Positions 36,352 to 49,270 are shown, numbered from the stretch's first letter. The stretch: 56,548 nucleotides of DNA from a virus (IMGVR_UViG_3300042154_001807:1-56548); one strand, 5' to 3'. Made by a program: numbers and translations. Notes: generated by a model from the sequence alone, not told the origin.

Positions 36352-36530
36352 ACAAACACACACCGAAAAATTGGGTAGTAAACTACCGTGAACCGTCCTC
36401 CATTGGCAGGGCATTCTGGGAGATCACTGACGGCTTAGACAAGCCGATAGCATTTGTCACCGAACCGCAGCCAAGATCCCGCGAGGAGATGGCTGCTATA
36501 GCTAAAGCGAAAGGAGGGGCAGCGCTATGA
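36348..36530 (+). CDS. Hypothetical early protein (KHTP..W type)
   Basis: ATGA-coupled. Confidence 0.55.
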   Translation: MNKHTPKNWVVNYREPSSIGRAFWEITDGLDKPIAFVTEPQPRSREEMAAIAKAKGGAAL

Positions 36531-36724
36531 TCCTAGAACTAGCTATTTCAGGAGCCGCATTTGGGATTCTTGGAGCCTATTGTCTAGCAAAGGCAGCTTC
36601 GATGAAACCACCTAATCGAGGGATCCAAGTTGGCGGCGTTAAGCCGTTTGAATCGCGCAGTATTCAGAATAGGCTGGCACTTGGACTGCTGGCACAAAAA
36701 TCTAACAAAAACAAGAAAAAATAA
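36527..36724 (+). CDS. Small membrane protein
   Basis: Hydrophobic N-terminus; ATGA-coupled. Confidence 0.5.
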   Translation: MILELAISGAAFGILGAYCLAKAASMKPPNRGIQVGGVKPFESRSIQNRLALGLLAQKSNKNKKK

Positions 36725-36725
36725 T

Positions 36726-37001
36726 ATGAGTGAAAAAGAAATAACAACAGACAACGGTGGGTCGGCGTTTCCAACAACTGGCTTCGATAGCCCAAATCAT
36801 GGGTGGCAACACGGGCAAGAAGGTATGACACTACGCGACTACTTCGCGGCGGCGGCTTTGACTGGAGAGGTTGGCGGCGAAGATTTTGGTGGTGAGCTAG
36901 CACAACTAAGAAGCCATGAAAACGCAAGGTTGATGGCGAGGAGAGCATATATGCTAGCGGACGCAATGCTGGCAGCAAGAAAGGAGGGCAACCAGTCATG
37001 A
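36726..37001 (+). CDS. Conserved phage protein with GG.AFP / GMTLRDYFAA / AY..ADAML motifs
   Basis: Widespread small phage family recognised by its motifs; start MSEKEI. Confidence 0.75.
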   Translation: MSEKEITTDNGGSAFPTTGFDSPNHGWQHGQEGMTLRDYFAAAALTGEVGGEDFGGELAQLRSHENARLMARRAYMLADAMLAARKEGNQS

Positions 37002-37630
37002 GAAACGTAAACTGTCCGAAGACAAAAATCTACGTTCGCTGCGATGCGTTTGGTGGGTCTCCTGAAGAGTTTGAACCAGCGTGGTTGGTGTCCGTAAGAG
37101 CGATGCGTAACCGACCACTATGCTTCCAAGCATGGATTGAAAAGTATGCAGCGTGCTACGACAAGATTCCACCTCAGTGTATCTACTGGTATAAGCCTGA
37201 CGCAGACCACAAAGCGCTACCACTTCACAAGATACAGATGTGGGAGTGCCTCTCTGGATCTATCGAAATTTGGCGAAAGGATCAACTCAACGATGTTCCG
37301 ATGCTAGTGAACCTCGGAAAGGGTATGGATCCAATCGGAGGTCATTATTGGTTTACTATCGACTTCCTGCCCGAAGGACAGGCTCAAGGATTGTTTGACG
37401 TGGGCGACTCCGAGCTGCTCGAAGAACACAAAGAAGGTAATGTGATCAAACTGGACAACGGGCAGATTGCAATCTACCCAAACAACCGACTCAAATGGCT
37501 TCCAGTATCTCTGACAGGAAAAGAAGCACCGAGCGCAATTCCTCCGTGGGATGTGGCAACCAACGCCCAATGGGACGAGTGGTGGGCAGACTCAGACGAA
37601 ATCTTGGGGGACGCAAAATGGGCATATTAA
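36998..37630 (+). CDS. Conserved phage hypothetical protein
   Basis: 'FTID...SE...EHK..N.IKLDNGQ.A.YPNNR..W' pattern recalled from aquatic phages. Confidence 0.7.
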   Translation: MRNVNCPKTKIYVRCDAFGGSPEEFEPAWLVSVRAMRNRPLCFQAWIEKYAACYDKIPPQCIYWYKPDADHKALPLHKIQMWECLSGSIEIWRKDQLNDVPMLVNLGKGMDPIGGHYWFTIDFLPEGQAQGLFDVGDSELLEEHKEGNVIKLDNGQIAIYPNNRLKWLPVSLTGKEAPSAIPPWDVATNAQWDEWWADSDEILGDAKWAY

Positions 37631-38388
37631 AAATTATGAACGCAACATACGGACTAGAATTATTCGAACTCGCACTCCGCAAAGAGACCGAGTCAATGAC
37701 CGAGGCAGAGAGAGCGGTATACGCTCAGCTGTCCGAACACCCAGTCACTCAGAAGCAGATAGCTGAGAGTGAGCGCTGGATAGGCACACACCCTTGGCAT
37801 GATGGATACGAGTCGGACACGACTACCAGAGCTGTTAGGCAGATAGTTCAGGATCTCAGGACCAAGCACAAGGTGCCTGTGCTGTCAGACCGTCGTGGCT
37901 ACTTTTTCAGTAACGACGAAGAGCAGCGTAAGGCATTTCTCGAGAGGCATGTCCGCAGTGCGACAGCGTCGATGAAGACATCGATCGAGACATACAATTC
38001 GATGAAGCACATCGTCGGAGAGCATGCATTTTTTGAATCGATGTTAGAACTCATAAACCGTGAAGACAACAGCCAAGCACAGGAAAGCCCAGCGTTGCCT
38101 GATGCGGGATGTTCGGACACACCGAGAACAGATGCTAAAATGTTTCCCGCATGGGCATGGGACACGCACACAATGGAATACGTGCCTCACGGCATCGGAT
38201 TTCCTGCCGAGGATGCCCGTAAATTAGAGCGCGAACTAGCAGCAGTCACCGAGCAGCGGGACACGCTGGCAGAGGCACTCCGAAAACTAGCTGATTGCGA
38301 TTGGGTAATTACACTGCCAGATCGGATGGACGCAGTAAGAACTATCGCCAACGAAGCCCTCCAATCCATAACCCCGAACGAACTATGA
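37618..38388 (+). CDS. Winged-HTH-like protein fused through an attC-like site to a TPRTD/ARKLERE module
   Basis: 'TTRAVRQIVQDLR...VLSDRRGYFF'; the segment NSQAQESPALPDAGCS is encoded by 38064..38117. Confidence 0.6.
   Translation: MGILKIMNATYGLELFELALRKETESMTEAERAVYAQLSEHPVTQKQIAESERWIGTHPWHDGYESDTTTRAVRQIVQDLRTKHKVPVLSDRRGYFFSNDEEQRKAFLERHVRSATASMKTSIETYNSMKHIVGEHAFFESMLELINREDNSQAQESPALPDAGCSDTPRTDAKMFPAWAWDTHTMEYVPHGIGFPAEDARKLERELAAVTEQRDTLAEALRKLADCDWVITLPDRMDAVRTIANEALQSITPNEL
38064..38117 (-). mobile_element. attC-like site A (54 bp, inner stem slightly decayed)
   Basis: Minus strand: TCCGAAC-ATCCC-GCATCAGG-caacgctgggcttt-CCTGTGC-TTGGCT-GTTGTCT. Confidence 0.75.
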
Positions 38389-38795
38389 ACACAGACACAC
38401 CGAAAATAATACAATTACTAATGTCACCGAATGACTCCGTATGGCAAGGCGTGTTGCTTGGTCTTGGAGATGATGGAGTTACATATCATTGCCAAGGGGA
38501 TACATGGCAACCTTACATACCTCCGTTGAATCCACAAGATAAAGCAGCCGAGCTTGCCTCCTTCACCGAGCAGCGGGACGAAGCGCGAATTGAATTAGAG
38601 AAATACACAACTGACAGCGAAGACGATGCGCTTTATAACGTGCGAAGATTGCGTAAAGAACTAACCGCCGTCACCGAGCAGCGGGACGAAGCGCGTCGCC
38701 TTGCCGAGAAATACCGCCACTTATCATGCGACAGCCTAGAGGAAGCCGATGAAACGCTGCTGCCTTGGGAAATAACAACCCCGAACGAACTATGA
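38385..38795 (+). CDS. Hypothetical protein with TEQRD repeats
   Basis: Probable start MNTDTPK, ATGA-coupled. Confidence 0.6.
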   Translation: MNTDTPKIIQLLMSPNDSVWQGVLLGLGDDGVTYHCQGDTWQPYIPPLNPQDKAAELASFTEQRDEARIELEKYTTDSEDDALYNVRRLRKELTAVTEQRDEARRLAEKYRHLSCDSLEEADETLLPWEITTPNEL

Positions 38796-38841
38796 ACACA
38801 CCAACCGACTCCGAGGCGTTGCCTCTCACGACTTGTTCGTC
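38780..38841 (-). mobile_element. Partial/hybrid attC-like site C
   Basis: R''-L'' arm GACGAAC-AAGTC-GTGAGAGG-CAACGCC is nearly identical to site G, but the matching L' is missing. Confidence 0.55.
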
Positions 38842-38974
38842 TTGTTTGAATTGGGAGCCACGCCAGAACAGCGGCATTGGTGACGGATACTGCCAGATCT
38901 TCGATAAATTCACCGATCCTGACCACGGCAAACGCTGCACCGCATTTGAGCCGAACGCACAAGCAAAGCCATGA
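38792..38974 (+). CDS. Small Cys-rich cassette protein
   Basis: MNTPTDSEALPLTTCSSC..W...GYC...C..F; starts and ends inside attC-like sites. Confidence 0.6.
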   Translation: MNTPTDSEALPLTTCSSCLNWEPRQNSGIGDGYCQIFDKFTDPDHGKRCTAFEPNAQAKP

Positions 38975-39080
38975 GCCATTGTGAAAACATCGACGGAAAG
39001 TGCGGAGCGTCGTGGTGTGACTGCGACTATCAGCGGCGTAAAAAGTCAGTTGGATCATTGGCTTCTGCGCCTTGTTCGCG
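38950..39080 (-). mobile_element. attC-like site D (131 bp)
   Basis: Minus strand: CGCGAAC-AAGGC-GCA(G)AAGC-CA(A)TGA...TCATG-GCTTTGC-TTGTGC-GTTCGGC. Confidence 0.8.
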
Positions 39081-39333
39081 GTTGCGGATACCTCGCCACC
39101 TGCTCGAACTGCGCATTCGCAACGCCATAGCCGACAAGGAAATGGTAACGGCGATGGCAAACCGTGACCTGCAATGCGGGGACGGGTGGCGGTGCGACTA
39201 TGCCGAGTGGCATCGTGAAGTCTCAAAGGAGATCGAGGAACTATTCATTCTTTCCGCGAACAGCCAAGCACAGGCACGCCCAGCGTTGCCTGATGCGGAA
39301 TGTTCGGAACAACCAACAAACGAAACAAAATGA
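38971..39333 (+). CDS. Hypothetical cassette protein
   Basis: 120 aa; starts inside site D and reads through site F. Confidence 0.6.
   Translation: MSHCENIDGKCGASWCDCDYQRRKKSVGSLASAPCSRLRIPRHLLELRIRNAIADKEMVTAMANRDLQCGDGWRCDYAEWHREVSKEIEELFILSANSQAQARPALPDAECSEQPTNETK
39255..39308 (-). mobile_element. attC-like site F (54 bp)
   Basis: Minus strand: TCCGAAC-ATTCC-GCA(T)CAGG-CA(A)CGC-TGG-GCGTG-CCTGTGC-TTGGCT-GTTCGCG. Confidence 0.85.
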
Positions 39334-39689
39334 ACGACACACCGACACCGAGGACGGATGCTGAACACGCTCAATTTCCGATGGGAGGATTTACGTTAGA
39401 CTTTGCCAGAAAACTTGAACGCGAGCTTGCCGCCGCACGGGAGGAATTAGCCGAACTAAAGGCGGAATACGGAACGTGGTGGGCGCAGAAACGCATCGCA
39501 ATTGATGAGCTAAAGGAAGTCACCGAGCAGCGAGACAGGCTGGCTGAGGAGTTGAAAAATATCAAATGTGCTTTTTGCGGGGAAACGCAACAAACAGAAA
39601 ATGAAAAAGCATATTGCCAAGAGTTTAGCAATACACTAGGTGAGTTACCAACTATGGCTATGTGGCTACTAACTAAAAGGAAGCCATGA
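39330..39689 (+). CDS. TPRTD/ARKLERE-type coiled-coil protein
   Basis: Probable start MNDTPTPRTD, ATGA-coupled. Confidence 0.6.
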   Translation: MNDTPTPRTDAEHAQFPMGGFTLDFARKLERELAAAREELAELKAEYGTWWAQKRIAIDELKEVTEQRDRLAEELKNIKCAFCGETQQTENEKAYCQEFSNTLGELPTMAMWLLTKRKP

Positions 39690-39840
39690 ACCTAGAACTC
39701 TGGCAAATCGTCGGCAATCAAGGAGGTGATCGATGAGCGACCAAAGCATAAAACTGTTAGAAAAGATCCTCGACAAGGCAAAATCTCTAACGAAATAGAA
39801 CTTTCTTTCGTTGTAGAATATAGGATTTTGAAAATACTTG

Positions 39841-39890
39841 TTTACAACGGAAGCGTTTTTGTTATGTTTCGTTTGTCGCCGCGAGCGACA
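39841..39890 (+). promoter_or_regulatory. Early promoter P2 plus leader hairpin
   Basis: TTTACA-16-TATGTT, then TGTCGC-CGCGA-GCGACA. Confidence 0.55.
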
Positions 39891-39915
39891 CCAACAACAC
39901 TAATCAAAACACATT

Positions 39916-40164
39916 ATGAAAACTACAATCATCCACGTCGATCACCGCAAAGTTGAAGTCGAAATCAGAAACGCTCCAAACGGTCGCAAGCTTGTAATCG
40001 CTATTCGCGATGCGGGTGCATCGGAAATGTGGGATCAAAAACCTAATCCGATTGGCGCATATATACGCCAGCAGTGGAATAAAACTTACATCTACAAGCG
40101 TTGCGCGGGATGGGTATCCCTAAGCGCATCGCAAATTGGATTTCTTGACGAAATTACAGTCTAA
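39916..40164 (+). CDS. Small early protein
   Basis: 82 aa after P2. Confidence 0.65.
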   Translation: MKTTIIHVDHRKVEVEIRNAPNGRKLVIAIRDAGASEMWDQKPNPIGAYIRQQWNKTYIYKRCAGWVSLSASQIGFLDEITV

Positions 40165-40216
40165 CTAATTCAAAAACAGGGGCGCGGCTGAATACGCGCA
40201 ACCGAAACACAAAATT

Positions 40217-40462
40217 ATGACAATCACAAACGCAATTAAAAAAGTTACCAAGGCAGGTTTCAAAGTCACACAAAATGGGAAACGCTATTCAGCAAAAAAA
40301 GATGGCATAAATTATCTTGTTGAGTTTTCACAAAACGGCAGTGAAGACATAATCACCTGCATCGGAGTGCGTCACAAAAACGATAATAGCGATAGTCAAT
40401 GCGACTATTGCGCCACGATTTTTACTGATAACCTATCGCAAGCAATCAGACTTGCTCACTAA
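40217..40462 (+). CDS. Small early protein
   Basis: 81-aa ORF. Confidence 0.65.
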   Translation: MTITNAIKKVTKAGFKVTQNGKRYSAKKDGINYLVEFSQNGSEDIITCIGVRHKNDNSDSQCDYCATIFTDNLSQAIRLAH

Positions 40463-40470
40463 CTAAAAAT

Positions 40471-40683
40471 ATGGAACCAGAAGCCGCCGCCGCGAGAATA
40501 TGCTGCGAGTATAATCTCCTAGCAGAAGACTCGGATATTAAGACTATCTGCATGAGCGCTGACGACCTGCACAGTCTAGCGCTTGACTGGCAGCGCAAGA
40601 CCAAAATCCTTCAGGATCTGTTAGACCACGTAGCTGGAATTCAATCTAACGTAAACGACTTAGCCAAGATTTTAAAATCATGA
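40471..40683 (+). CDS. Small early protein
   Basis: 70-aa ORF. Confidence 0.55.
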   Translation: MEPEAAAARICCEYNLLAEDSDIKTICMSADDLHSLALDWQRKTKILQDLLDHVAGIQSNVNDLAKILKS

Positions 40684-41279
40684 ACGACACCAAGACAAAC
40701 GAGGAAATGATCAGGCTCCTTCTCACACCGATCAGCGAACTGAGCAAAGACGAAGTGTCATTCTTCGTCGGGAACAGGGAGCTTCTAAGAAATCTGAGGA
40801 ATTCTCCAGAGTATTATCGGGGTCTTGCTGCGGATCTCAGGACGAAGTCGGTAATCCCTAACGGGATGCGTCTCACTGGTCTCACAGAACACGTCACGCA
40901 TGCCAGTGGTAAACGCAAGACAGTATGCACGTCGGCTGCTCTGGCATTCTTCAACGTGCCACCAAGCGCATACCACTACAGTGGTCATGCAGAGCAAGAC
41001 AACGCAGTCCTGCGCAGGCACGGCTGGAGTGCCCGTAGCCGTAAATCAGCGTTCAAGGTGAAGGGTGGCAAGGCATCGCTCGCCAGCGTCATCAGGGGCA
41101 TCAAGGATCGAGGAGAAGACGGGCACTACAAGCTCAGCATCAGACTGACCAAGGGTCAGGGATACCACTGCATCGTGATCGACTCCAAAGGCAAGATCGT
41201 AGTCGACACTGCGAGCAGCGCCACCACACCTCGCGCCACCGTGCGTGACATTTACATCATTCAACGAATAAAAAAATAA
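40680..41279 (+). CDS. Hypothetical protein, possibly papain-like (Cys...His...Asp)
   Basis: 'TVCTSAAL', 'YHCIVID', 'VVDT'. Confidence 0.45.
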   Translation: MNDTKTNEEMIRLLLTPISELSKDEVSFFVGNRELLRNLRNSPEYYRGLAADLRTKSVIPNGMRLTGLTEHVTHASGKRKTVCTSAALAFFNVPPSAYHYSGHAEQDNAVLRRHGWSARSRKSAFKVKGGKASLASVIRGIKDRGEDGHYKLSIRLTKGQGYHCIVIDSKGKIVVDTASSATTPRATVRDIYIIQRIKK

Positions 41280-41281
41280 TT

Positions 41282-41521
41282 ATGAACACACGACCAATAC
41301 ACGAAATAGCGTCCGAGATTTATCAGGACTGGGGAAGCAAAGTGAACTTCGCGGCGAAGCCATACCTGAAGGCGATGACCTTCTTGGACAAGCCGACGGA
41401 CAAATACATCCACGACAGCGGCAGAGACATCGTCCTGCGCTTCCTGTGCAATGCCACGACCTACCGTGGAGAAACCGCACGACGGGTGAAGGCAGAACTT
41501 AAAAAACTGTTAGGGATTTAA
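41282..41521 (+). CDS. Conserved small phage protein
   Basis: 'RPIHEIA.EI..DW..VNFAAKPYL.AM...FL.NA...RGE.AR.VKAELK'. Confidence 0.7.
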   Translation: MNTRPIHEIASEIYQDWGSKVNFAAKPYLKAMTFLDKPTDKYIHDSGRDIVLRFLCNATTYRGETARRVKAELKKLLGI

Positions 41522-41522
41522 C

Positions 41523-41753
41523 ATGAAAACCAAGCCGATGAGAATCAAAGCTTTCTGGTCACTTTACGGTGTCCGCATCCACCGTGCAGGTCGCAACCTA
41601 GACCTCGGTGGAGGCGATGGGGCTTATCACGTAGCAGCTTTTAATTTACTAAATCTGTTAGAGAGAGAGTGCTACACTGGCGAGATTGAATTTTACGGAA
41701 ATTGTTCAAAAGAAGTGGAAAAAGAATTCAACGAATACAAGTCAATCGGCTGA
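41523..41753 (+). CDS. Small early protein
   Basis: 76-aa ORF. Confidence 0.55.
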   Translation: MKTKPMRIKAFWSLYGVRIHRAGRNLDLGGGDGAYHVAAFNLLNLLERECYTGEIEFYGNCSKEVEKEFNEYKSIG

Positions 41754-41793
41754 AACCATTTTAGAATATAGCGAAAATAAATGAAAATAATTA

Positions 41794-41821
41794 TTTACAT
41801 CGGAAGTATTTTCGCTATGAT
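41794..41821 (+). promoter_or_regulatory. Early promoter P3
   Basis: TTTACA-16-TATGAT with a CGGAAGTATTT spacer like P1 and P2. Confidence 0.55.
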
Positions 41822-41843
41822 GAGCGCGTCAACCAACAACATT

Positions 41844-42239
41844 ATGAACACACCTACGAATCCAACAGCAGCACAAATTGCACAATACACAGCAACCGTC
41901 ACCCAAGTGGGCAAAAAATGGGTGCATACTTTGATTGACGAAAATGGACAAGTGATTGCAAAGCGTAGCACAGACAACTGCACACCATACCGTGCAGCGT
42001 GTGTTACAGTTGTCACTCTTAATTCTCGCATTCACTCCCTCAAAAGAGAGATTGTAAAATCTCGTTCAAAGTCATTCATTGAGTCCTGCAAACACGACAT
42101 TCAAGAAGCACAGGCAGATATTGCAGCAGGTGTTGATGGCAACCAGTATTTTGGTTTTATTGTTTCATGGACAAGAGGTCTTTCTGGGTCCGCCAGTTAT
42201 GGATCAATCATTGCCAGACTGGTGCCATGCAAAGCATAA
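41844..42239 (+). CDS. Hypothetical early protein
   Basis: Probable start MNTPTNPT downstream of P3. Confidence 0.6.
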   Translation: MNTPTNPTAAQIAQYTATVTQVGKKWVHTLIDENGQVIAKRSTDNCTPYRAACVTVVTLNSRIHSLKREIVKSRSKSFIESCKHDIQEAQADIAAGVDGNQYFGFIVSWTRGLSGSASYGSIIARLVPCKA

Positions 42240-42261
42240 ATCAACTAACATACCAGCACTC

Positions 42262-42291
42262 ACCTCACCGATTGAATTCGGTGGGGTTTTC
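42262..42291 (+). terminator. Possible intrinsic terminator
   Basis: CCTCACCGA-loop-TCGGTGGGG followed by TTTT. Confidence 0.5.
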
Positions 42292-42301
42292 TGGGCGTAA
42301 C

Positions 42302-42538
42302 ATGAAAATACTAATTGCCAACATCCCGATCGGTCTTCGCCTTGCTCTCAAGGCTGGAGAATTCGCAGCAATCAGACTCAGCTCTGGAGCAAACAACAGT
42401 GTCTTGATCAGAGACGGTCGAGCCTACCAGTTCGAGAACACGATGCGCAGCAAGATGCCGTCTTTGCCTGCGACATCGCTACCAGTAAAAGTAAAAAGAG
42501 TCTCAGAAAAATCTATCACATTCGACCTATTGCCATGA
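42302..42538 (+). CDS. Hypothetical protein
   Basis: Probable start MKILIANIP. Confidence 0.55.
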   Translation: MKILIANIPIGLRLALKAGEFAAIRLSSGANNSVLIRDGRAYQFENTMRSKMPSLPATSLPVKVKRVSEKSITFDLLP

Positions 42539-42852
42539 ACATCCTATCATCAAAACGTCGTGGCGTAAATGCCGCCCTGAACGCATCTCCCAGCCTGTCT
42601 GGAAACATGCGTCACGGGTCAACCACCTCTGGGCTACAGGAGCTTACACGCATCCTTGCAGCGCACGGTTTCAGCCTTGACATTGTCCGAGGAGATACCA
42701 TCATCGGTGACCGAGGGATTGTCACCCTGCCATTCAGACCGACCTCGGACGACTCTGCCACGGAGCTGCCACAAGTCACTAATTCATTCGCGGTCTTTTC
42801 TTGGACGAAGCTCGACGAAGATCGCACTGAAGTCCTCGCATACCTCTCCTAA
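42535..42852 (+). CDS. Hypothetical protein
   Basis: 105 aa, ATGA-coupled. Confidence 0.6.
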   Translation: MNILSSKRRGVNAALNASPSLSGNMRHGSTTSGLQELTRILAAHGFSLDIVRGDTIIGDRGIVTLPFRPTSDDSATELPQVTNSFAVFSWTKLDEDRTEVLAYLS

Positions 42853-42866
42853 CAACTAAAATTAAT

Positions 42867-43043
42867 ATGAAAATAACACAGCAATACGCAGACAGAACAG
42901 TCGGGATCATAGCCGCCCAGTCATACCTTGACGAGCGGTTCGCCCCGACCAATAGCAAGCTCGCCAGCGCCTTCATCACGGGTTTAGGCATTGGAATCAT
43001 CATCGCGACCATCATCGGTCTGCTCGTCATCCAACCCAGCTAA
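42867..43043 (+). CDS. Small membrane protein (58 aa)
   Basis: Manual translation; C-terminal hydrophobic stretch GLGIGIIIATIIGLLVI. Confidence 0.5.
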   Translation: MKITQQYADRTVGIIAAQSYLDERFAPTNSKLASAFITGLGIGIIIATIIGLLVIQPS

Positions 43044-43219
43044 TGAAACCTAACAAAAACGCACAGGCACTCGGCGCTCTTGGAAAAGGCATCAAGAAGA
43101 CCATGACCAAGGCAGCGCTTGAGCAGCGCAAGGCTGCTTCCAAGAAGCCAAGGACCACCACTCCAACTAAATCAACAATTGCTCGCAGAGCAAAACTCGG
43201 AATCAAAAACAAATTATGA
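43043..43219 (+). CDS. Small very basic protein (58 aa)
   Basis: Manual translation MKPNKNAQALGALGKGIKKT...; coupled to both neighbours. Confidence 0.55.
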   Translation: MKPNKNAQALGALGKGIKKTMTKAALEQRKAASKKPRTTTPTKSTIARRAKLGIKNKL

Positions 43220-43440
43220 ACGACATCATCGAACACCACACCAAGCAGGAGTCTGCGGCTCAGTCAGAGCTTCAGCAATTGAAAGATCGCGAGTTCAGTT
43301 TAAAGCTGAAGCTGCGGTTTCAGAAAGCTCCAGTCCAGTATCATAGCCGCCACGGTCGAACCCGTGCAGCTATACAACTAAGAATCTCCCAGCACGGTGC
43401 GCTCGCCAGCTACTGGGCAAACAAAATGAAGCGAGCCTAA
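43216..43440 (+). CDS. Hypothetical protein
   Basis: 74-aa ORF. Confidence 0.5.
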   Translation: MNDIIEHHTKQESAAQSELQQLKDREFSLKLKLRFQKAPVQYHSRHGRTRAAIQLRISQHGALASYWANKMKRA

Positions 43441-43445
43441 AATTT

Positions 43446-43543
43446 TCTCTCGCCAGTGCTGAGGCGGCGACTCAGGATAAAGCCCTTGAATGGGACAGAG
43501 TGCCTGCCAGCGATGGCTTAAAAACATGACAACTGGCGAGAGA
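43446..43543 (+). ncRNA. Candidate multibranch structured RNA
   Basis: 12-bp closing stem TCTCTCGCCAGT/ACTGGCGAGAGA encloses CTGAG/CTCAG, CCC/GGG and GCCA-GCGA-TGGC hairpins. Confidence 0.55.
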
Positions 43544-43560
43544 TTCAAATCAAATAAATT

Positions 43561-44676
43561 ATGAACAAAACATTACCACCACAAGAGGTCGAGGTGCTAC
43601 CCACGCTCGAGATGTCGGAAGTCCCACAGGAGTTCCAAGTGAAGATTCGCGCCAGTTTCGGAGACCTGATGCACCAAGCTGATGTGCTTGTTACCAAGGC
43701 TCGAGAAATCGCAGCAATGGGAGAGTCTACCGATCAGGAGAAGCAGGCACGGGAGACCCGTCTGGCGCTCGTCAAGGTGCGGACTAGTGCCGAGAAAACG
43801 CATAAGGACATGAAGCAAGACATCCTTGTGCAAGGTCGTGCGATCGACGGGGCGAAGAACATCGTGATCGCTGCTACCCAGCCGTCCGAGAAGGACATGA
43901 AAGCGATCGAGGATCGTGCCGAGCTACGTGCCCAAGAAGAGCGCGACCGTCTGCACGCTGATCGATACGCTGAGCTGAACCAGTTCACGACCGCATACAA
44001 CACACTCAGCCTCGGTCGCCTGACCGCTGAGGAGTATGCAGCGATGCTTGACAACAGCAAGCTGGCACACGAAGCCAGAATTGCCCGTGAAGAGCGCGAG
44101 AAGGCAGAGCGCGAAGCCGCAGCCAAGGCTGAGGAGGAAGAGCGCCAGCGCATTGCTGCCGAGCGTGTAGAGGCTGAGAAGAAAGCAGCAGCAGAGCGTG
44201 CTGAGCTTGAGGCTAAGGCAAAGCGTGAGGAGGCTGCTCGCAAAGAAGCTGAAGCAGTGATCGCAAAGCAGCAAGCAGAGGCTGAAACCGCTCGCAAAGC
44301 TGCTGCTGCGGCACTAGCCAAGCAGCAGGCAGAGGCTGAGGCAAAGCTCGCAGCAGAGCGTAAGTCTGCGGCAGCGGCTCTTGAGGCTGCGGCAGCGGCG
44401 ATTGAGAAAGCAAAAGCTGAGGCAGCACGGCTTGCAAAGATCGAATCCGATCGATTGGCTGCTGCTCGCGCCGATTCCGAGGCTAAGGAACAGGCTGAGA
44501 AAAAAGCAGCCATTGCTCCTGACAAAGTCAAAATCGCTGAATACGCGAAAGAGATTTTAGGGGTCAGGTTGCCTACTGGCAGCACCGACGATGGGAAAGC
44601 AGCTTGCGCTAAAATCAGCAAGGTCATCGAAACAGCACTCGCTGAAATCCGAACCATTTACACAACACTAAAATGA
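43561..44676 (+). CDS. Long coiled-coil protein of the recombination module
   Basis: Ala/Glu/Lys/Arg-rich; 'AIDGAKN', 'APDKVKI'. Confidence 0.7.
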   Translation: MNKTLPPQEVEVLPTLEMSEVPQEFQVKIRASFGDLMHQADVLVTKAREIAAMGESTDQEKQARETRLALVKVRTSAEKTHKDMKQDILVQGRAIDGAKNIVIAATQPSEKDMKAIEDRAELRAQEERDRLHADRYAELNQFTTAYNTLSLGRLTAEEYAAMLDNSKLAHEARIAREEREKAEREAAAKAEEEERQRIAAERVEAEKKAAAERAELEAKAKREEAARKEAEAVIAKQQAEAETARKAAAAALAKQQAEAEAKLAAERKSAAAALEAAAAAIEKAKAEAARLAKIESDRLAAARADSEAKEQAEKKAAIAPDKVKIAEYAKEILGVRLPTGSTDDGKAACAKISKVIETALAEIRTIYTTLK

Positions 44677-45554
44677 TACAAGAAGCACAAAGAAAAGGAG
44701 CCAAGGGAGTTTTCGGATTCGCTGGTCAATCGGGCACTGGGAAAACCTTTAGCGCACTCATGTTCGCGTATGGTCTCGCTGGCTGCGTCGGCAAGCGCAT
44801 GGGATTTCTTGACACCGAGAACCGTCGAGGAAGTCTCTACGCTGACATCCTTCCAGATGGCGACCGATTCATGGCAATGGACATGACCGCTCCGTTCCAT
44901 CCTCGCAAATATGTCGAGGCTATTGCGGAGTTCGAAAAAGCTGGAATCGACACCCTTGTCATCGACTCTATCTCTCACGAATGGGAGGGTCAAGGAGGCT
45001 GCTCCGACATCGCTCTCTACGGGGACTACACCGACGCTCAGTTCTCTGACGGCACATGGTGCGCGAAAGAAGCCAAGCGTGCCCAGTGGCAGGTTGCTAA
45101 GCGCGAGAACCAGAAGTTCGTGAACGCACTGCTACAGTCGAAGATGAACATCGTCGTCTGCCTCCGAGCCAAGGAGAAGTCCAAGGTCGAGCAAGACGGT
45201 GGTGTCAGCTCATTGGGTATCCAGCCGATCTGCGAGAAGAATTTCTCGTTCGAGGCTACCACTCTCTTGCTCATGCAGGACGAGGGTTCGTCTCAGAAGG
45301 TGCTGCGCTGCCCTTCGGCGCTCAGACCCTACCTCGGACGTGCCGATGACTACATCACGGTGCAGGACGGTCTTGCTGTGCGCGAGTGGCTACAGGGAGG
45401 CACTCCTATGACAGCACTCGACAGACTGCGTGCGCAGCTCCTCACCAGCGCTGGGGAAGCCAGAGAGGCACTGTGGAAGTCTCTGACCAAGGATCAGAAG
45501 AAAACTCTAACCGACGACGGCACAGTCGCTCGTTTGAAAGGTGAGACGGTATAA
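44673..45554 (+). CDS. AAA_24 / Sak4-like ATPase (ssDNA annealing/recombination)
   Basis: Walker A GQSGTGKT, 'DTE', Walker B 'LVIDSISHEWEG.GG'. Confidence 0.8.
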   Translation: MIQEAQRKGAKGVFGFAGQSGTGKTFSALMFAYGLAGCVGKRMGFLDTENRRGSLYADILPDGDRFMAMDMTAPFHPRKYVEAIAEFEKAGIDTLVIDSISHEWEGQGGCSDIALYGDYTDAQFSDGTWCAKEAKRAQWQVAKRENQKFVNALLQSKMNIVVCLRAKEKSKVEQDGGVSSLGIQPICEKNFSFEATTLLLMQDEGSSQKVLRCPSALRPYLGRADDYITVQDGLAVREWLQGGTPMTALDRLRAQLLTSAGEAREALWKSLTKDQKKTLTDDGTVARLKGETV

Positions 45555-45557
45555 TTT

Positions 45558-45785
45558 ATGACTGACGAAGAAATTGAATTCTTTCAGCGTGAGAGCGCTG
45601 AAAGAAAGCGGATCAAAAAAATGGTTGATGACCTAAACGAAAGCGAGAAAGAGCGCAAGTCGTGGAGCAAATCACAAGAGCATAAAGCACCGTCAATAAC
45701 ACGATCCTATGCTGGCGGCAAAACATCGAAGGTCAAAGGGACTGGAAACTTTGACAGAGAGCAAATCAGATACGAAGGAAAATAA
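45558..45785 (+). CDS. Hypothetical protein
   Basis: 75-aa ORF. Confidence 0.55.
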   Translation: MTDEEIEFFQRESAERKRIKKMVDDLNESEKERKSWSKSQEHKAPSITRSYAGGKTSKVKGTGNFDREQIRYEGK

Positions 45786-45789
45786 TAAC

Positions 45790-46701
45790 ATGCAACCACA
45801 AATCATATACAACTACCCGAGAAAAAATTACTTCGCCCCTCATACTGGCGACCACAAGACACTGCGTGTCAGTAAGTCAATGCTTACCGACTTCGTGCCT
45901 AACCCAGCTGCGTGGCTGCTCATGCCTGTGCGCGAATACACAAAGGCGATGAAGTTCGGAAACCTCGTCGACTGCTTAGCACTGACCCCGACCGAGTTCG
46001 AGAACGAATACACAATCCTCCCATCGCACTACCCGTGCAAGCCGACCAAAATAGATCCTCGGGTAGAGAAACCGTGGAACGCTAATTCAAACTACTGCAA
46101 AGCTTTCGAAGCAGGTGTCGAGCTGGACGGCAAGCAAGCTGTGAAGCAAAGCGACTACCAGCAGGCACTCCAAGCGCTGACCATGCTCATGGCATTCAAG
46201 CCATACTCTGAGATGATGGAAGAGGCATCCACACAGGTTGCTATGTTCGGAGAGATTGTCGAAGAGGGATCTATGACCTTGGCTAAGGCGATGATTGACA
46301 TCGTGCCTAACAAAGGGAAGTGGAAGAGCTGCCTCGTTGACATGAAGACTACCGCTGAGATGTCGGAGCATCACTTTGCCAAGACAGTCGCGAAGTTTGG
46401 ATACCACCGTCAGGCTGCTCTGTATCTCGACCTGTGGAACGCATTGTCTGGTGAGAACCGAGACACGTTCTACATCGTATGGGTTCACAGTAAGGCACCT
46501 TACGAAGTGGCTATGAGACCGATCAGCGCCTCAGCAATTGCCGAGGGTCGTCGCTGGTATCGCAGCGCTCTTCGTCTCTGGAACGAATGCGTTACAACGG
46601 GAGTGTTCCCATCACCATGGGATGATATTGAGACCCCGATAGATTTGCCAGCGTTTGTCGAGTTGACATCGTTGGATGACGAAGAAGAAGAAGAAAACTA
46701 A
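45790..46701 (+). CDS. RecE/exonuclease VIII-like PD-(D/E)XK nuclease (DUF3799)
   Basis: 'SKSML', 'AMKFG', 'KAMID', 'VDMKTT', 'YHRQAALY', 'KAPYEV'. Confidence 0.85.
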   Translation: MQPQIIYNYPRKNYFAPHTGDHKTLRVSKSMLTDFVPNPAAWLLMPVREYTKAMKFGNLVDCLALTPTEFENEYTILPSHYPCKPTKIDPRVEKPWNANSNYCKAFEAGVELDGKQAVKQSDYQQALQALTMLMAFKPYSEMMEEASTQVAMFGEIVEEGSMTLAKAMIDIVPNKGKWKSCLVDMKTTAEMSEHHFAKTVAKFGYHRQAALYLDLWNALSGENRDTFYIVWVHSKAPYEVAMRPISASAIAEGRRWYRSALRLWNECVTTGVFPSPWDDIETPIDLPAFVELTSLDDEEEEEN

Positions 46702-46726
46702 TACCAATAATTAACTAAATAGAAAA

Positions 46727-47173
46727 ATGAGTAAAATATCACTAAACGATAAGTTAGCAGACCAAGAGGGTGGAGATTATATTCTCGTCCCTGTAGGCTA
46801 CCACGCATTCACAGTTGAAAGCGTAGGAGACGTAGAACTGTCATCCAACGGAAATGAGTTTCTAACCGTTGAGCTGACGTGCGGAGGAACCAAGGTGAAG
46901 GACAAAATTTTCTTAGGTGAGAAATCACTGTGGAGACTTGCCCGATTCTTGAAATCTTTGAAGGGAGGAGAGAGTCTTGGAGACATCGAGTTCGTGCCTG
47001 AAAAGTGCAGGTGGATTGTCGGCAAATCTGGGCAGCTTTTGATCGAGCATGAGAGTCCGACCGAAGGCAAGTATGCAGGCAAGAAATTTGCTCGCGTGAA
47101 GACATACGAGTGGGGGAAAGTGGTCGCTGATCTTGATGAGGATCCAGCAGATGACGACGACGTGCCGTTCTGA
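46727..47173 (+). CDS. DUF669-like ssDNA-binding protein
   Basis: 'PVGYH.F.V', acidic C-terminus ending DDDDVPF; follows the Sak4 and RecE-like genes. Confidence 0.75.
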   Translation: MSKISLNDKLADQEGGDYILVPVGYHAFTVESVGDVELSSNGNEFLTVELTCGGTKVKDKIFLGEKSLWRLARFLKSLKGGESLGDIEFVPEKCRWIVGKSGQLLIEHESPTEGKYAGKKFARVKTYEWGKVVADLDEDPADDDDVPF

Positions 47174-47204
47174 TCAATAAACGCTGGCATACCGTTTGTA
47201 TGCC

Positions 47205-47286
47205 ACCACACTCGCGCTCATTGCATTGAGGGCATCCTTAAACTAGATACTGGGTGAGCGACCTGAACAGTGGGTGCGAGTGTGGT
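47205..47286 (+). ncRNA. Candidate structured RNA with a 19-bp closing stem
   Basis: ACCACACUCGCGCUCAUUG pairs fully with CAGUGGGUGCGAGUGUGGU using 3 G.U pairs; two internal hairpins. Confidence 0.55.
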
Positions 47287-47292
47287 AATAAA

Positions 47293-47365
47293 ACTATCAT
47301 AGCTCAGAGTAGAGCAGTGGGCTTATAACCCATTGGACAGTGAATTAACGACTCACTTGGTAGCT
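47293..47365 (+). tRNA. tRNA-Ile(TAT)-like gene with a non-canonical T loop
   Basis: D arm GCTC-AGAGTA-GAGC, anticodon arm GTGGG-CTTATAA-CCCAT, T stem AGTGA/TCACT without TTC; no encoded CCA. Confidence 0.6.
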
Positions 47366-47465
47366 GTAATAAAATCCACACGCCTTGCCGACGTAATCGG
47401 CTAACAATTTACAAAATTATGAACAAAGAAAAACAAGAAGATGCAATTGCGATTGCAACGGGATG

Positions 47466-47551
47466 GGAGAACGCCTCTGTGGAGGCACGCCAATAACGAC
47501 TATGAATACACCAACCAACTCCGAGGCGTTGCCTCCCACAAATTGTTCTCG
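47466..47551 (-). mobile_element. attC-like site G (86 bp)
   Basis: Minus strand: CGAGAAC-AATTT-GTG(G)GAGG-CA(A)CGCC...GGCGTG-CCTCCAC-AGAGGC-GTTCTCC. Confidence 0.85.
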
Positions 47552-47789
47552 GCGTTGCTCGCCGCAGCTATCTAGTTCCGAAACTACGGCATACCGCGCG
47601 GTGGTCGTTGATGCCGATCAAGACGTAATCTGGACGCGAGACGCTCAAAACAACGTCATCGGCTACACGATTACTAACCCAAAGCCCGTCGCGGGTATGA
47701 GGCACATTCTGGACGATGGGAGTCTCTCTGCGCTAGATGTCCAAATTCATTGCGAGAACAGCCAAGATCAATCAGCACGCAGTGACTGA
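47502..47789 (+). CDS. Hypothetical cassette protein
   Basis: Start MNTPTNSEALPPTNCS lies in the loop of site G; the stop lies inside site H. Confidence 0.6.
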   Translation: MNTPTNSEALPPTNCSRRCSPQLSSSETTAYRAVVVDADQDVIWTRDAQNNVIGYTITNPKPVAGMRHILDDGSLSALDVQIHCENSQDQSARSD

Positions 47790-47808
47790 TTGCATCGACA
47801 TGTTCGAT
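47753..47808 (-). mobile_element. attC-like site H (56 bp)
   Basis: Minus strand: ATCGAAC-ATGTC-GAT(G)CAAT-CAG(T)CAC-TGC-GTGCTG-ATTGATC-TTGGCT-GTTCTCG. Confidence 0.85.
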
Positions 47809-47818
47809 AAAAATTATT

Positions 47819-49270
47819 ATGAAACCAAGACCATACCAACAGGAAGGCATCGACCATATACGACGAGCATATGGAAAGAAAATCCGCAAAGTCTTATACG
47901 TCCTCCCGACTGGAGGAGGCAAGACCGTCACGTTCTCATGCATCGCTGCTGGTGCAGCTGTGAAAGGAACTCGGACATGGATCGTTGCGCACCGTCGCGA
48001 ACTAGTGAACCAAGCGAGTAAGACTCTAACATCTTTCGGGATTAATCACGGGATCATGGTCCCTAAGTCAAAGCAGTGGACAGAATCACCAGTGCAGGTC
48101 TGTTCTCTCCAAACCCTTGTCGGTCGCATGTCGAAGGAGCAAGCTCCAAACTTTATCGTCTACGACGAAGCCCATCACGCTACGTCTGGAAGCTATGACA
48201 AGATCATGAAGCATTTCCCCGACGCTAAAATTCTAGGGGTAACAGCGACACCGTGCCGAACTGATGGCAAAGGTCTCGGTGATGTTTTTGAAGAACTGAT
48301 CATCGGTCCTTCTACTGGAGATCTAACAAATGATGGATACCTTTCTTCGGCTAGGTATTTCTGTAGCCCACGAATTGCCGATTTGTCTGGCATAGCGAAG
48401 CGTGGCGGAGACTACGAACGAGAAGCGCTTGCCGAAGCGATGGATCAGAAGCTCATCACTGGTGACGCTATCGAGCATTACAAGCGTCACTGCGACGGTG
48501 TTCCGATGATTGTGTTCTGCGTGTCTGTAGAGCATGCCAAGCACGTCGCTTCCGAGTATATCATTGCAGGATACCGAGCCACCTACGTCGACGGTCAACT
48601 ATCGGACGAAGAGCGTGCGTATCGACTCACGGGTCTCGGTGACGGAACCTTCCAAGTCGTCACCTCCTGCGACTTAATTGGTGAAGGGTTAGACATCCCC
48701 AACGTGGTCGCAGCACAACTCCTAAGACCGACGGAGTCGACAGGTTTGCACATGCAACAGATAGGAAGACCACTCAGACCAGTCTACGCAGCAGGCATGC
48801 CTCTGGACTCGGCGGAAGACAGGCTGGCAGCGATCGCGAACGGGGTGAAACCATACTCTGTGATTCTCGACCACGTAGGCAACTGCGGGTCAGTGGTCAA
48901 TGGTCAGTGGATGACCAAGCACGGGTTCGCGACAAGCCCGAGGGAGTGGTCTCTGGACGGCAAGAAAAAGAAGCCAAAGCTCGAGCCAGACGTTCTTATC
49001 AAGTCGTGCCCAGACTGCTTCAGTGTCCATGCCCCAGCCACCTGCTGTCCGTTCTGTGGGCACGTCTACCAAGTCGTCAAGTCACGCACCGTTGAAATAT
49101 CCAAGGGTGAATTGATAGAAGTCAAGGCACAGGAAGCACTGGCAAAAAAACAGGAAGAAAAAAAAGTTTTTACTCTGAAAGATCTCACAGAACTCGGTCG
49201 TAGCAGGGGATATAAAAATCCAGAGTTCTGGGCTAGAATGAAAATCAAAGGAAGAAAAAATATACGATGA
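47819..49270 (+). CDS. SF2 DEAD/DEAH-type helicase with a C-terminal zinc ribbon
   Basis: PTGGGKT, DEAHH, TATP.R.DG, EGLD.P, QQIGR.LR, CPDC/CPFCG. Confidence 0.92.
   Translation: MKPRPYQQEGIDHIRRAYGKKIRKVLYVLPTGGGKTVTFSCIAAGAAVKGTRTWIVAHRRELVNQASKTLTSFGINHGIMVPKSKQWTESPVQVCSLQTLVGRMSKEQAPNFIVYDEAHHATSGSYDKIMKHFPDAKILGVTATPCRTDGKGLGDVFEELIIGPSTGDLTNDGYLSSARYFCSPRIADLSGIAKRGGDYEREALAEAMDQKLITGDAIEHYKRHCDGVPMIVFCVSVEHAKHVASEYIIAGYRATYVDGQLSDEERAYRLTGLGDGTFQVVTSCDLIGEGLDIPNVVAAQLLRPTESTGLHMQQIGRPLRPVYAAGMPLDSAEDRLAAIANGVKPYSVILDHVGNCGSVVNGQWMTKHGFATSPREWSLDGKKKKPKLEPDVLIKSCPDCFSVHAPATCCPFCGHVYQVVKSRTVEISKGELIEVKAQEALAKKQEEKKVFTLKDLTELGRSRGYKNPEFWARMKIKGRKNIR

Follow-up and report, generated by a model that had tools for sequence, protein, structure and literature searches.

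Integrons are commonly regarded as bacterial devices. A canonical cassette has its open reading frame (ORF) on the top strand, preceding the cassette's attC site without entering it, and the attC site must fold from single-stranded DNA. In the superintegron of Vibrio cholerae, a near-identical repeat is found around unrelated genes, with homology stopping at the R boxes, and the genes keep the canonical orientation, unlike those of the locus described here.

The available text of Nivina et al. (2020, PMC7439510) describes attC as being cut at AA|C and as having a GC-rich apex, a VTS of 3-100 nt, and two extrahelical bases, usually G and T, that are separated by 6 bp and lie 9 and 16 nt from the R box. 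It also reports that protein-coding DNA and linkers can accommodate functional attC sites; those sites were engineered, whereas the ones considered here would be natural and would hold a stop and a start codon in addition. Clusters of attC sites lacking an integron integrase are known as CALINs and, according to Cury (2016, PMC4889954), comprise at least two same-strand sites separated by less than 4 kb. CALINs and integrons of phages have already been published as well. Phage-borne attC clusters were first reported in 2023 from a handful of isolates by Qi et al. (2023, PMC9892861), whose accessible sections describe clusters without an integrase in virulent phages and five DNA methyltransferase cassettes.

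The DNA analyzed here, referred to as the window, is a viral stretch of 56,548 nucleotides (IMGVR_UViG_3300042154_001807:1-56548). It carries five elements that we take to be integron-type attC recombination sites, with a probability of about 75%, the recombining bottom strand being the window's + strand. This reading draws on observed structure and statistics, a geometry identical to that of real attC sites, homology boundaries, and an association with integrases. The first-pass annotation of the window knew of no characterization of a phage-borne CALIN-like system; phage CALINs were published in 2023 (Qi et al., PMC9892861), so the basic idea has been characterized before. To the extent that the accessible sections of that study cover them, its CALINs resemble the present clusters in lacking an integrase, and its DNA methyltransferase cassettes have counterparts among the cassette ORFs scanned here (5/50 methyltransferase-like, 2 Mom-like). 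They differ in that the present clusters come from a fresh-water habitat and have an integrase link to Verrucomicrobiota. In the partly available literature, no description was found of attC sites that are joined in frame to the borders of genes while the ORFs lie on the bottom strand. In Tetrasphaera phage TJE1, a strict match to the descriptor used below lies between genes on the opposite strand, whereas the window sites are in frame on the coding strand and contain the junction itself.

Elements of the window and their fold

The features of the window that enter the comparison are the following:

38064..38117, + strand: element A, a decayed attC-like site (bottom strand) and paralogue of F, in frame within the fused ORF 37495-38388; AAC 38068-70, GTT 38111-13
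38789..38842, + strand: orphan half-site with a G-type loop, the 3' arm and the GTTC box; the complementary 5' arm is absent
38792..39689, + strand: small, cassette-like ORFs 38792-38974, 38971-39333 and 39330-39689
38950..39080, + strand: element D, attC-like, with an 80-nt loop; strict descriptor match with 0 mismatches; AAC 38954-56, GTT 39074-76
39255..39308, + strand: element F, compact and attC-like, with a loop of 3 nt, where ORF 38971-39333 has its 3' end; strict descriptor match; AAC 39259-61, GTT 39302-04
44673..47173, + strand: recombination module with Sak4-like AAA_24, PDDEXK exonuclease VIII-like and SSB-like genes (Pfam and PHROG matches)
47419..47789, + strand: ORFs 47419-47496 (25 aa) and 47502-47789 (95 aa)
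47466..47551, + strand: element G, an attC-like site with a 33-nt loop; strict descriptor match; AAC 47470-72, GTT 47545-47
47753..47808, + strand: element H, compact and attC-like, where ORF 47502-47789 has its 3' end, upstream of a helicase gene; strict descriptor match; AAC 47757-59, GTT 47802-04

Parsing of the + strand places all five elements where the first-pass annotation had put them, with the arms of D corrected: its 3' arm (39050-39079) lies about 100 nt downstream of the 5' arm, with the 80-nt loop between them. From 5' to 3', the fold consists of AAC, 6 nt, 3 bp, 6 bp, a GC-rich stem and a loop of 3-80 nt, after which follow an unpaired T, 6 bp, an unpaired base, 3 bp, 5 nt and GTT. 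AAC and GTT pair at the base of the hairpin in A, D, F, G and H. As had been claimed, D, F, G and H keep this geometry although their sequences differ. Their stems are free of mismatches, and the DNA fold of F has a z of -3.8. For element A, the location stands but its integrity does not: it is a decayed paralogue of F (82% identity across 72 nt) with two mismatches in the stem and a weak basal R helix, and it does not pass the strict descriptor. Of the features described for attC, the AAC/GTT base, the central spacer, the two extrahelical bases 6 bp apart on one arm, the VTS and the GC-rich apex are all found, while the R box consensus RYYYAAC/GTTRRRY is not, since the window sites read GAAC/GTTC.

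The descriptor of this geometry was written after the window elements had been seen, and its independent tests are the related loci and real integrons. In its loose form, with an inner stem of at least 12 bp, it has 4 matches in the window, whereas 60 dinucleotide shuffles average 0.05. In its strict form, 15 unique matches are obtained on the + strand of the window plus 83 loci and none on the - strand, and shuffling these 915 kb four times leaves 1, 1, 0 and 0. When 34 of the 64 basal triplets were tried, more than 2 matches were obtained only for AAC (15) and for the shifted readings GAA (11) and ACA (4). Family statistics were taken from 57 unique strict sites in phage loci totalling about 1.02 Mb. 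Of these sites, 39 have spacers of 6/5 nt (range 4-7 nt across all 57), 54 have a middle helix of 6 bp, and 54 have T as the inner unpaired base; the outer one is C in 29, G in 10, T in 10 and A in 8. The apical stem is 89% GC and the loop is 3-80 nt long (median 33); G precedes AAC in 41/57 sites, C follows GTT in 43/57, and there are 35 distinct basal stems.

Applied unaltered to a 26-kb class 1 integron region, the same descriptor has 7 matches, all 7 of them cassette junctions on the bottom strand, and four plasmid integrons add 5 further matches at junctions and none elsewhere at 0 mismatches. In sixteen regions beside Verrucomicrobiota intI genes, all 18 matches share the strand of intI. 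The attC architecture proposed for the window is matched by the bottom strands of real attC sites from class 1, plasmid and Verrucomicrobiota integrons. The class 1 sites used for comparison (aadA1, aadA2, cmlA1, estX, dfrA and others; from the phage P1 record MH445380 and four plasmids) share with the phage sites the bottom-strand AAC, the 6/5-nt spacers, the 3-bp helix, the unpaired base, the 6-bp helix, the unpaired T, the GC-rich stem, the variable loop and the closing GTT. They differ in the R box (YAAC/GTTR in class 1, mostly GAAC/GTTC in the phages), in the outer unpaired base (G and mostly C, respectively), and in that the phage genes lie on the bottom strand, with sites overlapping two genes. 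Chromosomal integrons of Verrucomicrobiota have the same geometry, and some of their sites, for example in genome G261, share the CGAAC...GTTCG boxes; the attC sites beside intI in G261 deviate from the R box consensus as the window sites do. Their cassette ORFs run opposite to the bottom strand, whereas those of the window lie on it, and the G-type sequence of the window was not found in 401 sampled Verrucomicrobiota genomes, where its core does not occur beyond chance.

A covariance model (R1), a proxy seeded with six class 1 attC sites, ranks F first across the whole window (28.6 bits, E 2.4e-6), gives H a marginal score (14.5 bits, E 0.083), and gives A (8.6 bits, E 6.6) and G (8.5 bits, E 6.9) non-significant ones; D is absent from the window's match list under this six-site proxy. 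In the benchmark of R1, real attC sites outside the seed scored 20-45 bits and some real sites were missed, and the relative L085a scored 21.9 bits.

Homology boundaries and associated integrase-like genes

Homology between unrelated phages begins at AAC and stops at GTTC. Breakpoints in relatives had been expected at G|TT, and they do fall at AAC, its complement, with five pairwise breaks no more than 8 nt away from it (H, A, L118/L113, L124/L109 and D/L109). Homology with the relatives L003-L005 begins at 47756, the G of the GAAC of element H, and a lake-metagenome contig (run X4) rejoins the window at 47806, directly past the GTTC of H; the segment 47419..47789 is wholly replaced in L003-L005 and in run X4. 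At A, homology with the closest relatives stops at 38078, 8 nt beyond AAC, and at D, the stem and the downstream gene of L109 both differ after a shared ...CCGAAC. Several boundaries lie at the GTTC end, for which a one-point crossover at AA|C does not itself account.

Element G matches L066 (4365-4444) at 92.5% identity over exactly GAAC..GTTC between unrelated flanks, its core is also found in 34 IMG/VR loci, and it is about 100% identical over some 70 nt to the second site of L124, a genome otherwise unrelated, which suggests either recent spread or strong selection. Across 30 contexts of the G-type, the information content is about 0 upstream, rises to 1.8 bits at the first A of AAC, 1.3 at the second and 1.6 at the C, and decays past GTTC. 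Within the window, the orphan half-site is 90% identical to 47499-47548 across 50 nt, stopping exactly at GTTC.

All five elements are on the + strand, with A, D and F grouped inside 1.24 kb and a distance of 287 nt from G to H. As noted earlier from the sequence, the window has no tyrosine recombinase, Pfam and PHROGs giving no match, and what would make a complete integron, the integrase gene, is absent from it. If the sites are attC, the window would thus contain two CALIN-like clusters, A-D-F and G-H, with at least two sites each, in agreement with the CALIN-like reading first proposed.

Integron-integrase-like genes are found beside arrays of the same type in other phages. Among 79 viral loci with IntI or Xer relatives, 42 matches lie upstream of the integrase gene on its strand, 13 on the opposite strand downstream, 2 on the same strand downstream, and 0 on the opposite strand upstream. 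Three viral contigs (L137, L187 and L190) carry such a gene beside arrays. In L137, three attC-like sites of this type are followed on the same strand by a gene whose product matches TIGR02249 over positions 7-312 of 315 with 252.3 bits, slightly below the curated cut-off of 265 and against 112-116 bits for Xer models; aligned with IntI1, it has the catalytic R, K, H-x-x-R, H and Y as well as the IntI-specific insert region. Two homologues, 86% and 81% identical, each stand behind similar site arrays, one belonging to a phage whose 59,637-bp genome is complete and has terminal repeats, and a further homologue (80%) is encoded in a Verrucomicrobiota genome. The earlier guess of Verrucomicrobiota fits these data, as the sole close bacterial homologue of the associated integrase is found in Haloferula luteola; integron integrases are common in this phylum, the TIGR02249 family being present in 87/301 sampled genomes.

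An unlikely reading is that the sites are fossils, made by integron activity in an ancestor or another phage, acquired through ordinary recombination, and now inactive gene ends. The visible decay of element A, which is read through in frame, and the orphan half-site at 38789-38842 would be expected of fossils, as would the absence of an integrase here and in 24 of the records of 25 relatives (the remaining one has a weak and generic tyrosine recombinase match). A strict site is present in only 12/80 related loci, and most other mosaic joints need no hairpin, many of those with the nearest relatives being start codons without one. Against this reading stand the perfect stems of D, F, G and H despite their different sequences, the near-identity of G with the second site of L124, and the occurrence of integrase-bearing phages and hosts in the same habitat type.

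Gene junctions and orientation

The + strand of the window is both the coding strand and the attC bottom strand, and relative to canonical cassettes the sites are, as first described, antisense to the genes. The canonical layout is not found: the ORFs lie on the bottom strand and begin within or just past the site. Counted as sense versus antisense, orientations are 29 vs 5 for phage sites, 1 vs 5 for class 1 sites and 2 vs 6 for Verrucomicrobiota sites. AAC stands in the reading frame of the upstream ORF in 44/52 sites. The 5' arm of D spans the ATGA in which the stop of ORF 38792-38974 overlaps the start of ORF 38971-39333, the loop of G is where ORF 47419-47496 stops and ORF 47502-47789 starts, and the orphan half-site codes for the N-terminus of ORF 38792-38974. 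The three ORFs in 38792..39689 have no Pfam or PHROG match and are mutually unrelated except for their element-encoded ends. With genes on the bottom strand and sites overlapping coding sequence, selection at the RNA or protein level could add to the conservation of the sites.

This layout is also what would be expected if the elements were RNA hairpins of early transcripts, involved in translational coupling, processing or protein binding and resembling attC by convergence, which we regard as quite improbable. Every site is on the sense strand at a gene junction, with the upstream stop and downstream start in the 5' arm or loop, ATGA overlaps occur within the loop, and a few G-T pairs are tolerated on the + strand. 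Coupling, however, needs no invariant AAC/GTT, fixed 6/5 spacers, 6-bp gap or conserved T, the same descriptor matches only attC sites in integrons, the arrays upstream of integrase genes have the orientation that integrons require, and the hairpins match no Rfam family; an RNA role could, moreover, coexist with an attC role. Very improbable is some other palindromic mobile repeat or linker unrelated to integrons (MITE-like, or based on Sak4/exonuclease short homology), for although the conserved unit runs exactly from box to inverted box in unrelated contexts, with boundaries at both ends, and although G and H have a recombination module of the phage itself as a neighbour, no target duplications were seen at the element ends, the strand asymmetry is strict (15 vs 0), the geometry is fixed while the stems vary, and the elements are associated with integrase genes.

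Proposed cassette exchange

Taking the elements as attC sites, the + strand, once single-stranded, would fold into the standard attC hairpin, with an R helix holding AAC/GTT, the unpaired 6/5-nt spacer, the 3-bp helix, an extrahelical base, the 6-bp helix, an extrahelical T, and a GC-rich stem leading to the 3-80 nt loop. The single-stranded DNA may come from the activity of the phage recombination module. The folded shape would be bound by an integron integrase and cut at AA|C, and a pair of sites recombining in this way would lead to excision or insertion of a module, namely one attC together with the gene after it. The predicted cassette between G and H extends from the C of the AAC of G to the AA of the AAC of H (47472-47758, 287 nt).

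That such recombination occurs, when, and through which integrase, we infer from assembled contigs. The enzyme could come from other phages of the same waters, in which a cognate integrase-like gene lies beside such sites, or from Verrucomicrobiota hosts. The first-pass annotation had proposed that a host integrase shuffles modules of the phage; its attC reading holds, but the integrase may be phage-borne rather than host-borne, as in the three viral contigs that carry one.

Unlike in classical cassettes, AAC is here an in-frame Asn codon close to the end of the upstream gene, with the upstream stop and the downstream start inside the 5' arm or loop and the genes on the bottom strand. Such a portable junction would supply the last codons and stop of the preceding gene together with the start and first codons of the next. 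With sites fused to gene junctions, any cassette could be joined in frame behind any gene and be read from the early transcript, so that it would be expressed at once. Somewhat short of an even chance, in our estimate, is the full proposal of a phage-adapted integron in lake phages, in which attC doubles as a portable gene junction and cassettes are exchanged in frame through a phage or host IntI.

If so, this uncultured phage group, with a whole attC-like family (about 1 Mb of loci yields 57 distinct sites) and integrase-like genes in some genomes, would offer natural examples of attC written into coding sequence, and a testable route for gene flow among phages and possibly between phages and Verrucomicrobiota hosts. 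The data suggest that small genes, some of them for DNA modification, are exchanged among its members in the form of integron cassettes, drawn from a shared pool that appears rich in such anti-restriction functions. Among 50 cassette ORFs scanned, 8 have a Pfam match, and 7 of these 8 are DNA methyltransferase-like (5) or Mom-like (2), which suggests that integron logic is used by phages to shuffle anti-restriction and other early genes, a counter-defence mirror, if true, of the bacterial integrons that store defence systems.

Structure of the elements and comparison with real attC sites

The five elements of the window, A (38064), D (38950), F (39255), G (47466) and H (47753), are candidate attC sites. 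This reading is well supported by their structure, by comparison with real sites, by the boundaries of homology with related phages, and by an association with integrases, so that the attC architecture proposed in the first-pass annotation holds. The four intact elements and an additional half-site are arranged as follows, with unpaired or spacer bases in lower case and loop lengths in parentheses.

Candidate attC sites of the window
F, + strand: GCGAAC agccaa GCA CAGGCA CGC (3 nt) GCG t TGCCTG a TGC ggaat GTTCGG
H, + strand: GAGAAC agccaa GAT CAATCAG CAC (3) GTG a CTGATTG c ATC gacat GTTCGA
G, + strand: GAGAAC, TGT GGAGGC ACGCC (33) GGCGT t GCCTCC c ACA, GTTCTC
D, + strand: CCGAAC gcacaa GCA AAGCCA TGA (80) TCA t TGGCTT c TGC gcctt GTTCGC
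38789-38842, + strand: half-site, additional to the five elements

D, F, G and H have a common layout and different stem sequences. A is a decayed paralogue of F: it is 82% identical to F over 72 nt, its stem carries two mismatches, and the paralogy extends to the genes that follow A and F. The five elements therefore amount to four independent good sites and one relic. All of them were found where the earlier annotation had placed them, except that the second arm of D lies about 100 nt further downstream. A hairpin at 32884-32927 (GAACAA...TTGTTC), just upstream of a serine recombinase gene, has no unpaired bases and a weak fold, and was not counted as a member.

According to Nivina et al. 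(2020, PMC7439510), an attC site is defined by cleavage of the R box between A and C, by a pair of extrahelical bases separated by 6 bp, by a loop of 3-100 nt and by a GC-rich apex. Real attC sites share with the phage elements the 6-nt and 5-nt spacers, as well as the order of a 3-bp helix, an unpaired base, a 6-bp helix and an unpaired T. Since this layout is that of real attC bottom strands, the + strand of the window has the bottom-strand layout, which is what the first-pass annotation meant in reading the sites on the minus strand.

A strict structural descriptor of the AAC...GTT hairpin with attC geometry (zero mismatches, at most one G-T pair) was applied unchanged to known integrons. 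A 26-kb stretch surrounding the class 1 integrons of a phage P1 record (MH445380) gave seven matches, all at cassette junctions (qacH, aadA1, cmlA1, aadA2, psp, estX and a dfrA cassette) and all opposite the cassette-gene strand, that is, on the attC bottom strand. Four plasmid integrons gave five junction matches; outside the junctions there were none at 0 mismatches. Two sites of this set, those of aadA5 and aac(6')-Ib, were missed. Two published phage CALINs (attC clusters without an integron integrase), from Shewanella phage M16-3 and Tetrasphaera phage TJE1, gave one strict match each.

The same descriptor found 15 unique matches on the + strand and 0 on the - strand of the window together with 83 related loci (915 kb), and 1, 1, 0 and 0 matches in four shuffles of this set. 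Of the 64 possible basal triplets, 34 were placed in the descriptor in turn: 15 matches were obtained with AAC, 11 and 4 with its shifted readings GAA and ACA, and 0-2 with each of the others. A looser version matched the window four times with an inner stem of at least 12 bp, whereas 60 dinucleotide shuffles averaged 0.05 such matches (maximum 1); the early region alone had four matches, compared with 0 in 100 shuffles. As the descriptor was written after the elements of the window had been seen, the independent tests are those on real integrons, relatives and integrase loci.

The covariance-model check was made through a proxy, R1, built from six compact class 1 attC bottom strands with a structure set by hand. 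The seed was limited to compact sites because the 5' arms of long-loop sites could not be aligned with MAFFT, and the model is accordingly narrow and penalises long-loop sites such as G and D. Over the whole window, on both strands and with filters off, F ranked first with 28.6 bits (E 2.4e-6). H reached 14.5 bits (E 0.083). The scores of A and G were 8.6 and 8.5 bits (E about 7), and D was not listed. Real attC sites outside the seed scored 20.5-44.7 bits, some being missed, and the element L085a of a relative scored 21.9 bits. Model support is thus clear for F and for no other element. A further match at 40574-40626 (17.1 bits, E 0.012), in which AGC replaces AAC and which shows no fold (z = -0.39), was treated as false.

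Homology boundaries and position within genes

The closest relatives of the window share 92-98% DNA identity with it. Their homology stops at 38078, 8 nt beyond the AAC of A, and restarts at 39716; it stops again at 47435 and restarts at 47756, which is the G of the GAAC of H. Pairwise breaks at AAC are also seen between the viral loci L118 and L113, between the second site of L124 and L109, and between D and L109, where D and L109 share ...CCGAAC followed by a different stem and a different gene. A comparison of relatives for breakpoints at G|TT had been proposed in the first pass, and it came out positive, with breaks at or near AAC in H, A, L118/L113, L124/L109 and D/L109. Against this, the majority of the other mosaic joints with the nearest relatives coincide with a start codon and have no hairpin. 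In several cases the boundary is at the GTTC end (38838, as well as the loose ends at 47806 and, in two lake runs, at 47549), and an AAC junction at 38866 is not followed by a hairpin. A joint of 38373 to 47469 in the lake-metagenome run X4 was discounted, its short side being only 21 letters.

The element itself can be shared between otherwise unrelated contexts. G and positions 4365-4444 of locus L066 are 92.5% identical over exactly GAAC to GTTC, with unrelated flanks on both sides, and loci L079 and L014 show the same pattern. The core of G was found at 34 loci in an IMG/VR scan. Across 30 distinct contexts of this core, information content is about 0 upstream, rises sharply at AAC (1.8, 1.3 and 1.6 bits for its successive bases), and falls off just past GTTC; among the 29 contexts listed, the two bases before the conserved C are not AA in four.

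The conserved signal is in the nucleic acid and not in the protein. The conserved 3' half is translated in differing frames, as ALPxxxCS in the window and AVAQQRLVP in locus L003, and in H the GTTC box lies past the stop codon. The ORFs following the sites are mutually unrelated except for 16 residues encoded by the element. AAC is an in-frame codon in 44 of the 52 sites with an upstream open frame of at least 30 codons, the chance expectation being one third, and was so in 13 of the 15 sites of the first set. The stop of the upstream gene falls in the spacer, arm or loop of the site, and the ATG of the next gene is either within the site (5' arm or loop) or immediately after it; loops of the G type hold TAA ... 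ATG or an ATGA overlap. Nivina et al. (2020, PMC7439510) showed that coding sequence can be engineered to contain attC sites.

Sites occur in arrays with a spacing of about 230-600 nt, D-F and G-H in the window and up to five per 3 kb elsewhere. Eight of the 50 ORFs directly after a site have a Pfam match at E 0.001, namely five DNA methyltransferase-like proteins (one below the cut-off), two of the Mom family and one with a helix-turn-helix.

Integrase-like genes of other phages and integrases of Verrucomicrobiota

No tyrosine recombinase turned up in the window when 71 ORFs were scanned with Pfam and 62 with PHROG, in agreement with the first reading. Such a gene is present in only 1 of 25 records of relatives, and in 3 of 32 records with a G-type core. 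The one among the relatives, in G004, was rejected as an integron integrase, being a generic phage integrase with a best NCBIfam match of 31.9 bits.

Integron-integrase-like genes are found beside such sites in other viral contigs. L132/L137, one of the three G-core records with a tyrosine recombinase, has an array of three strict sites with two methyltransferase-like cassettes, and behind it, on the same strand, a gene for 324 aa. The L137 protein scores 252.3 bits on the integron integrase model TIGR02249 (cut-off 265), compared with 112-116 bits on Xer models. It can be aligned over its entire length with IntI1 and with a pair of Verrucomicrobiota integrases (34-35% identity), and both the catalytic residues and the characteristic insert of integron integrases are covered by this alignment. 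Homologues in L187 and L190 (86% and 81% identity) lie downstream of arrays of GAAC-type sites. The L187 record, of 59,637 bp and with terminal repeats, is rated complete, and its portal is a distant homologue of that of the window. A tblastx search of L137 against the window returned nothing at E 1e-4, so the integrase-bearing contig belongs to a different phage.

Strict sites are present in 31 of the 79 viral loci that encode IntI or Xer relatives. Upstream of the integrase gene there were 42 matches on its own strand and 0 on the other; downstream of it, 13 were on the opposite strand and 2 on its own. Seven IMG/VR contigs (L195, L207, L208, L216, L219, L230 and L243) have attC-like arrays downstream of an integrase-like gene and on the strand opposite to it, which may be the "inverted integrase" arrangement of the integron literature. 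In L137 (2660-2700), fewer than 50 nt separate the last cassette from the integrase start, and the sequence preceding the integrase gene in L137, L187 and L190 yielded no attI-like site.

The only close bacterial homologue found of the L137 integrase is from Haloferula luteola (Verrucomicrobiota), at 80% identity; no strict site lies within 6 kb of it, and the same genome also encodes an integrase above the TIGR02249 cut-off. Matches over this cut-off occur in 87 of 301 sampled Verrucomicrobiota genomes, and in 16 regions beside Verrucomicrobiota integrase genes all 18 descriptor matches were on the same strand as the integrase gene. Some of these integron sites have the same CGAAC...GTTCG boxes as the phage sites. 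The cassette ORFs of Verrucomicrobiota, however, lie opposite the bottom strand, as in classical integrons, whereas the phage ORFs are on the bottom strand: sense and antisense ORFs number 29 and 5 for phage sites, 1 and 5 for class 1, and 2 and 6 for Verrucomicrobiota, the remaining sites being ambiguous. The G-type sequence was not found beyond chance in 401 sampled Verrucomicrobiota genomes; its core, at no more than one mismatch, occurred in 26 of them against about 36 for the reversed control, and none of the matches listed was element-like. A member of the Verrucomicrobiota is a possible host of the window phage.

Phage-borne attC sites have precedents, and Qi et al. (2023, PMC9892861) reported 17 CALINs and three complete integrons in 10,705 phage genomes, as well as recombination by IntI1 of five out of six attC sites from virulent phages. 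Full-text literature searches brought up no account of attC sites joined to gene junctions, of bottom-strand-encoded cassettes or of integrons in Verrucomicrobiota phages; the supplements of Qi et al. may list further phage sites.

Genome layout of the window

The window is an entire IMG/VR virus record of 56,548 bp, rated about 95% complete, and its ends (1-273 and 56276-56548) repeat each other over 273 nt at 97% identity. Megablast of 36000-48000 against GenBank phages gave no match. Rfam at the gathering threshold gave two tRNA matches only and none at the elements, and ARAGORN called no tRNA; the Rfam calls, unreported by ARAGORN, are at 47293-47365 (+, 43.2 bits) and 28422-28490 (-, 37.9 bits).

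Main regions of the window
About 1-33.4 kb, - strand: structural genes (portal, capsid protein, GP4-type fibres, terminase, one 4,818-aa ORF)
32185-32859, - strand: serine recombinase (Resolvase domain, PHROG "integrase", only 224 aa)
About 33.9-53.3 kb, + strand: early and replication genes (ORF list, Pfam, PHROG)

The serine recombinase gene overlaps by 4 bases the start of the next ORF on its strand (31664-32188, -), which encodes a sigma-70 region 4 domain. The 4,818-aa ORF (11925-26381, -) has no Pfam match and is located between the portal gene and the remaining structural block, and a perfect 75-nt tandem duplication (27730-27879) lies within the ORF at 27457-28149 (-). Beside one genome end, five repeats spaced by 72 nt (55591-56094) are found within a gene for BspA-type leucine-rich repeats.

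Many early genes on the + strand (e.g., at 34903, 35852, 38385, 41282 and 43561) start with (T)ATGAAC(A), and no clear Shine-Dalgarno sequence precedes them. ATGAAC, a motif that itself includes GAAC, is also directly followed by several of the mosaic joints with relatives. A 43-nt repeat encoding ...TEQRD... is present in four copies in adjoining coiled-coil ORFs (38233-38700 and 39507-39549), with many alternative joints between copies in lake-metagenome contigs.
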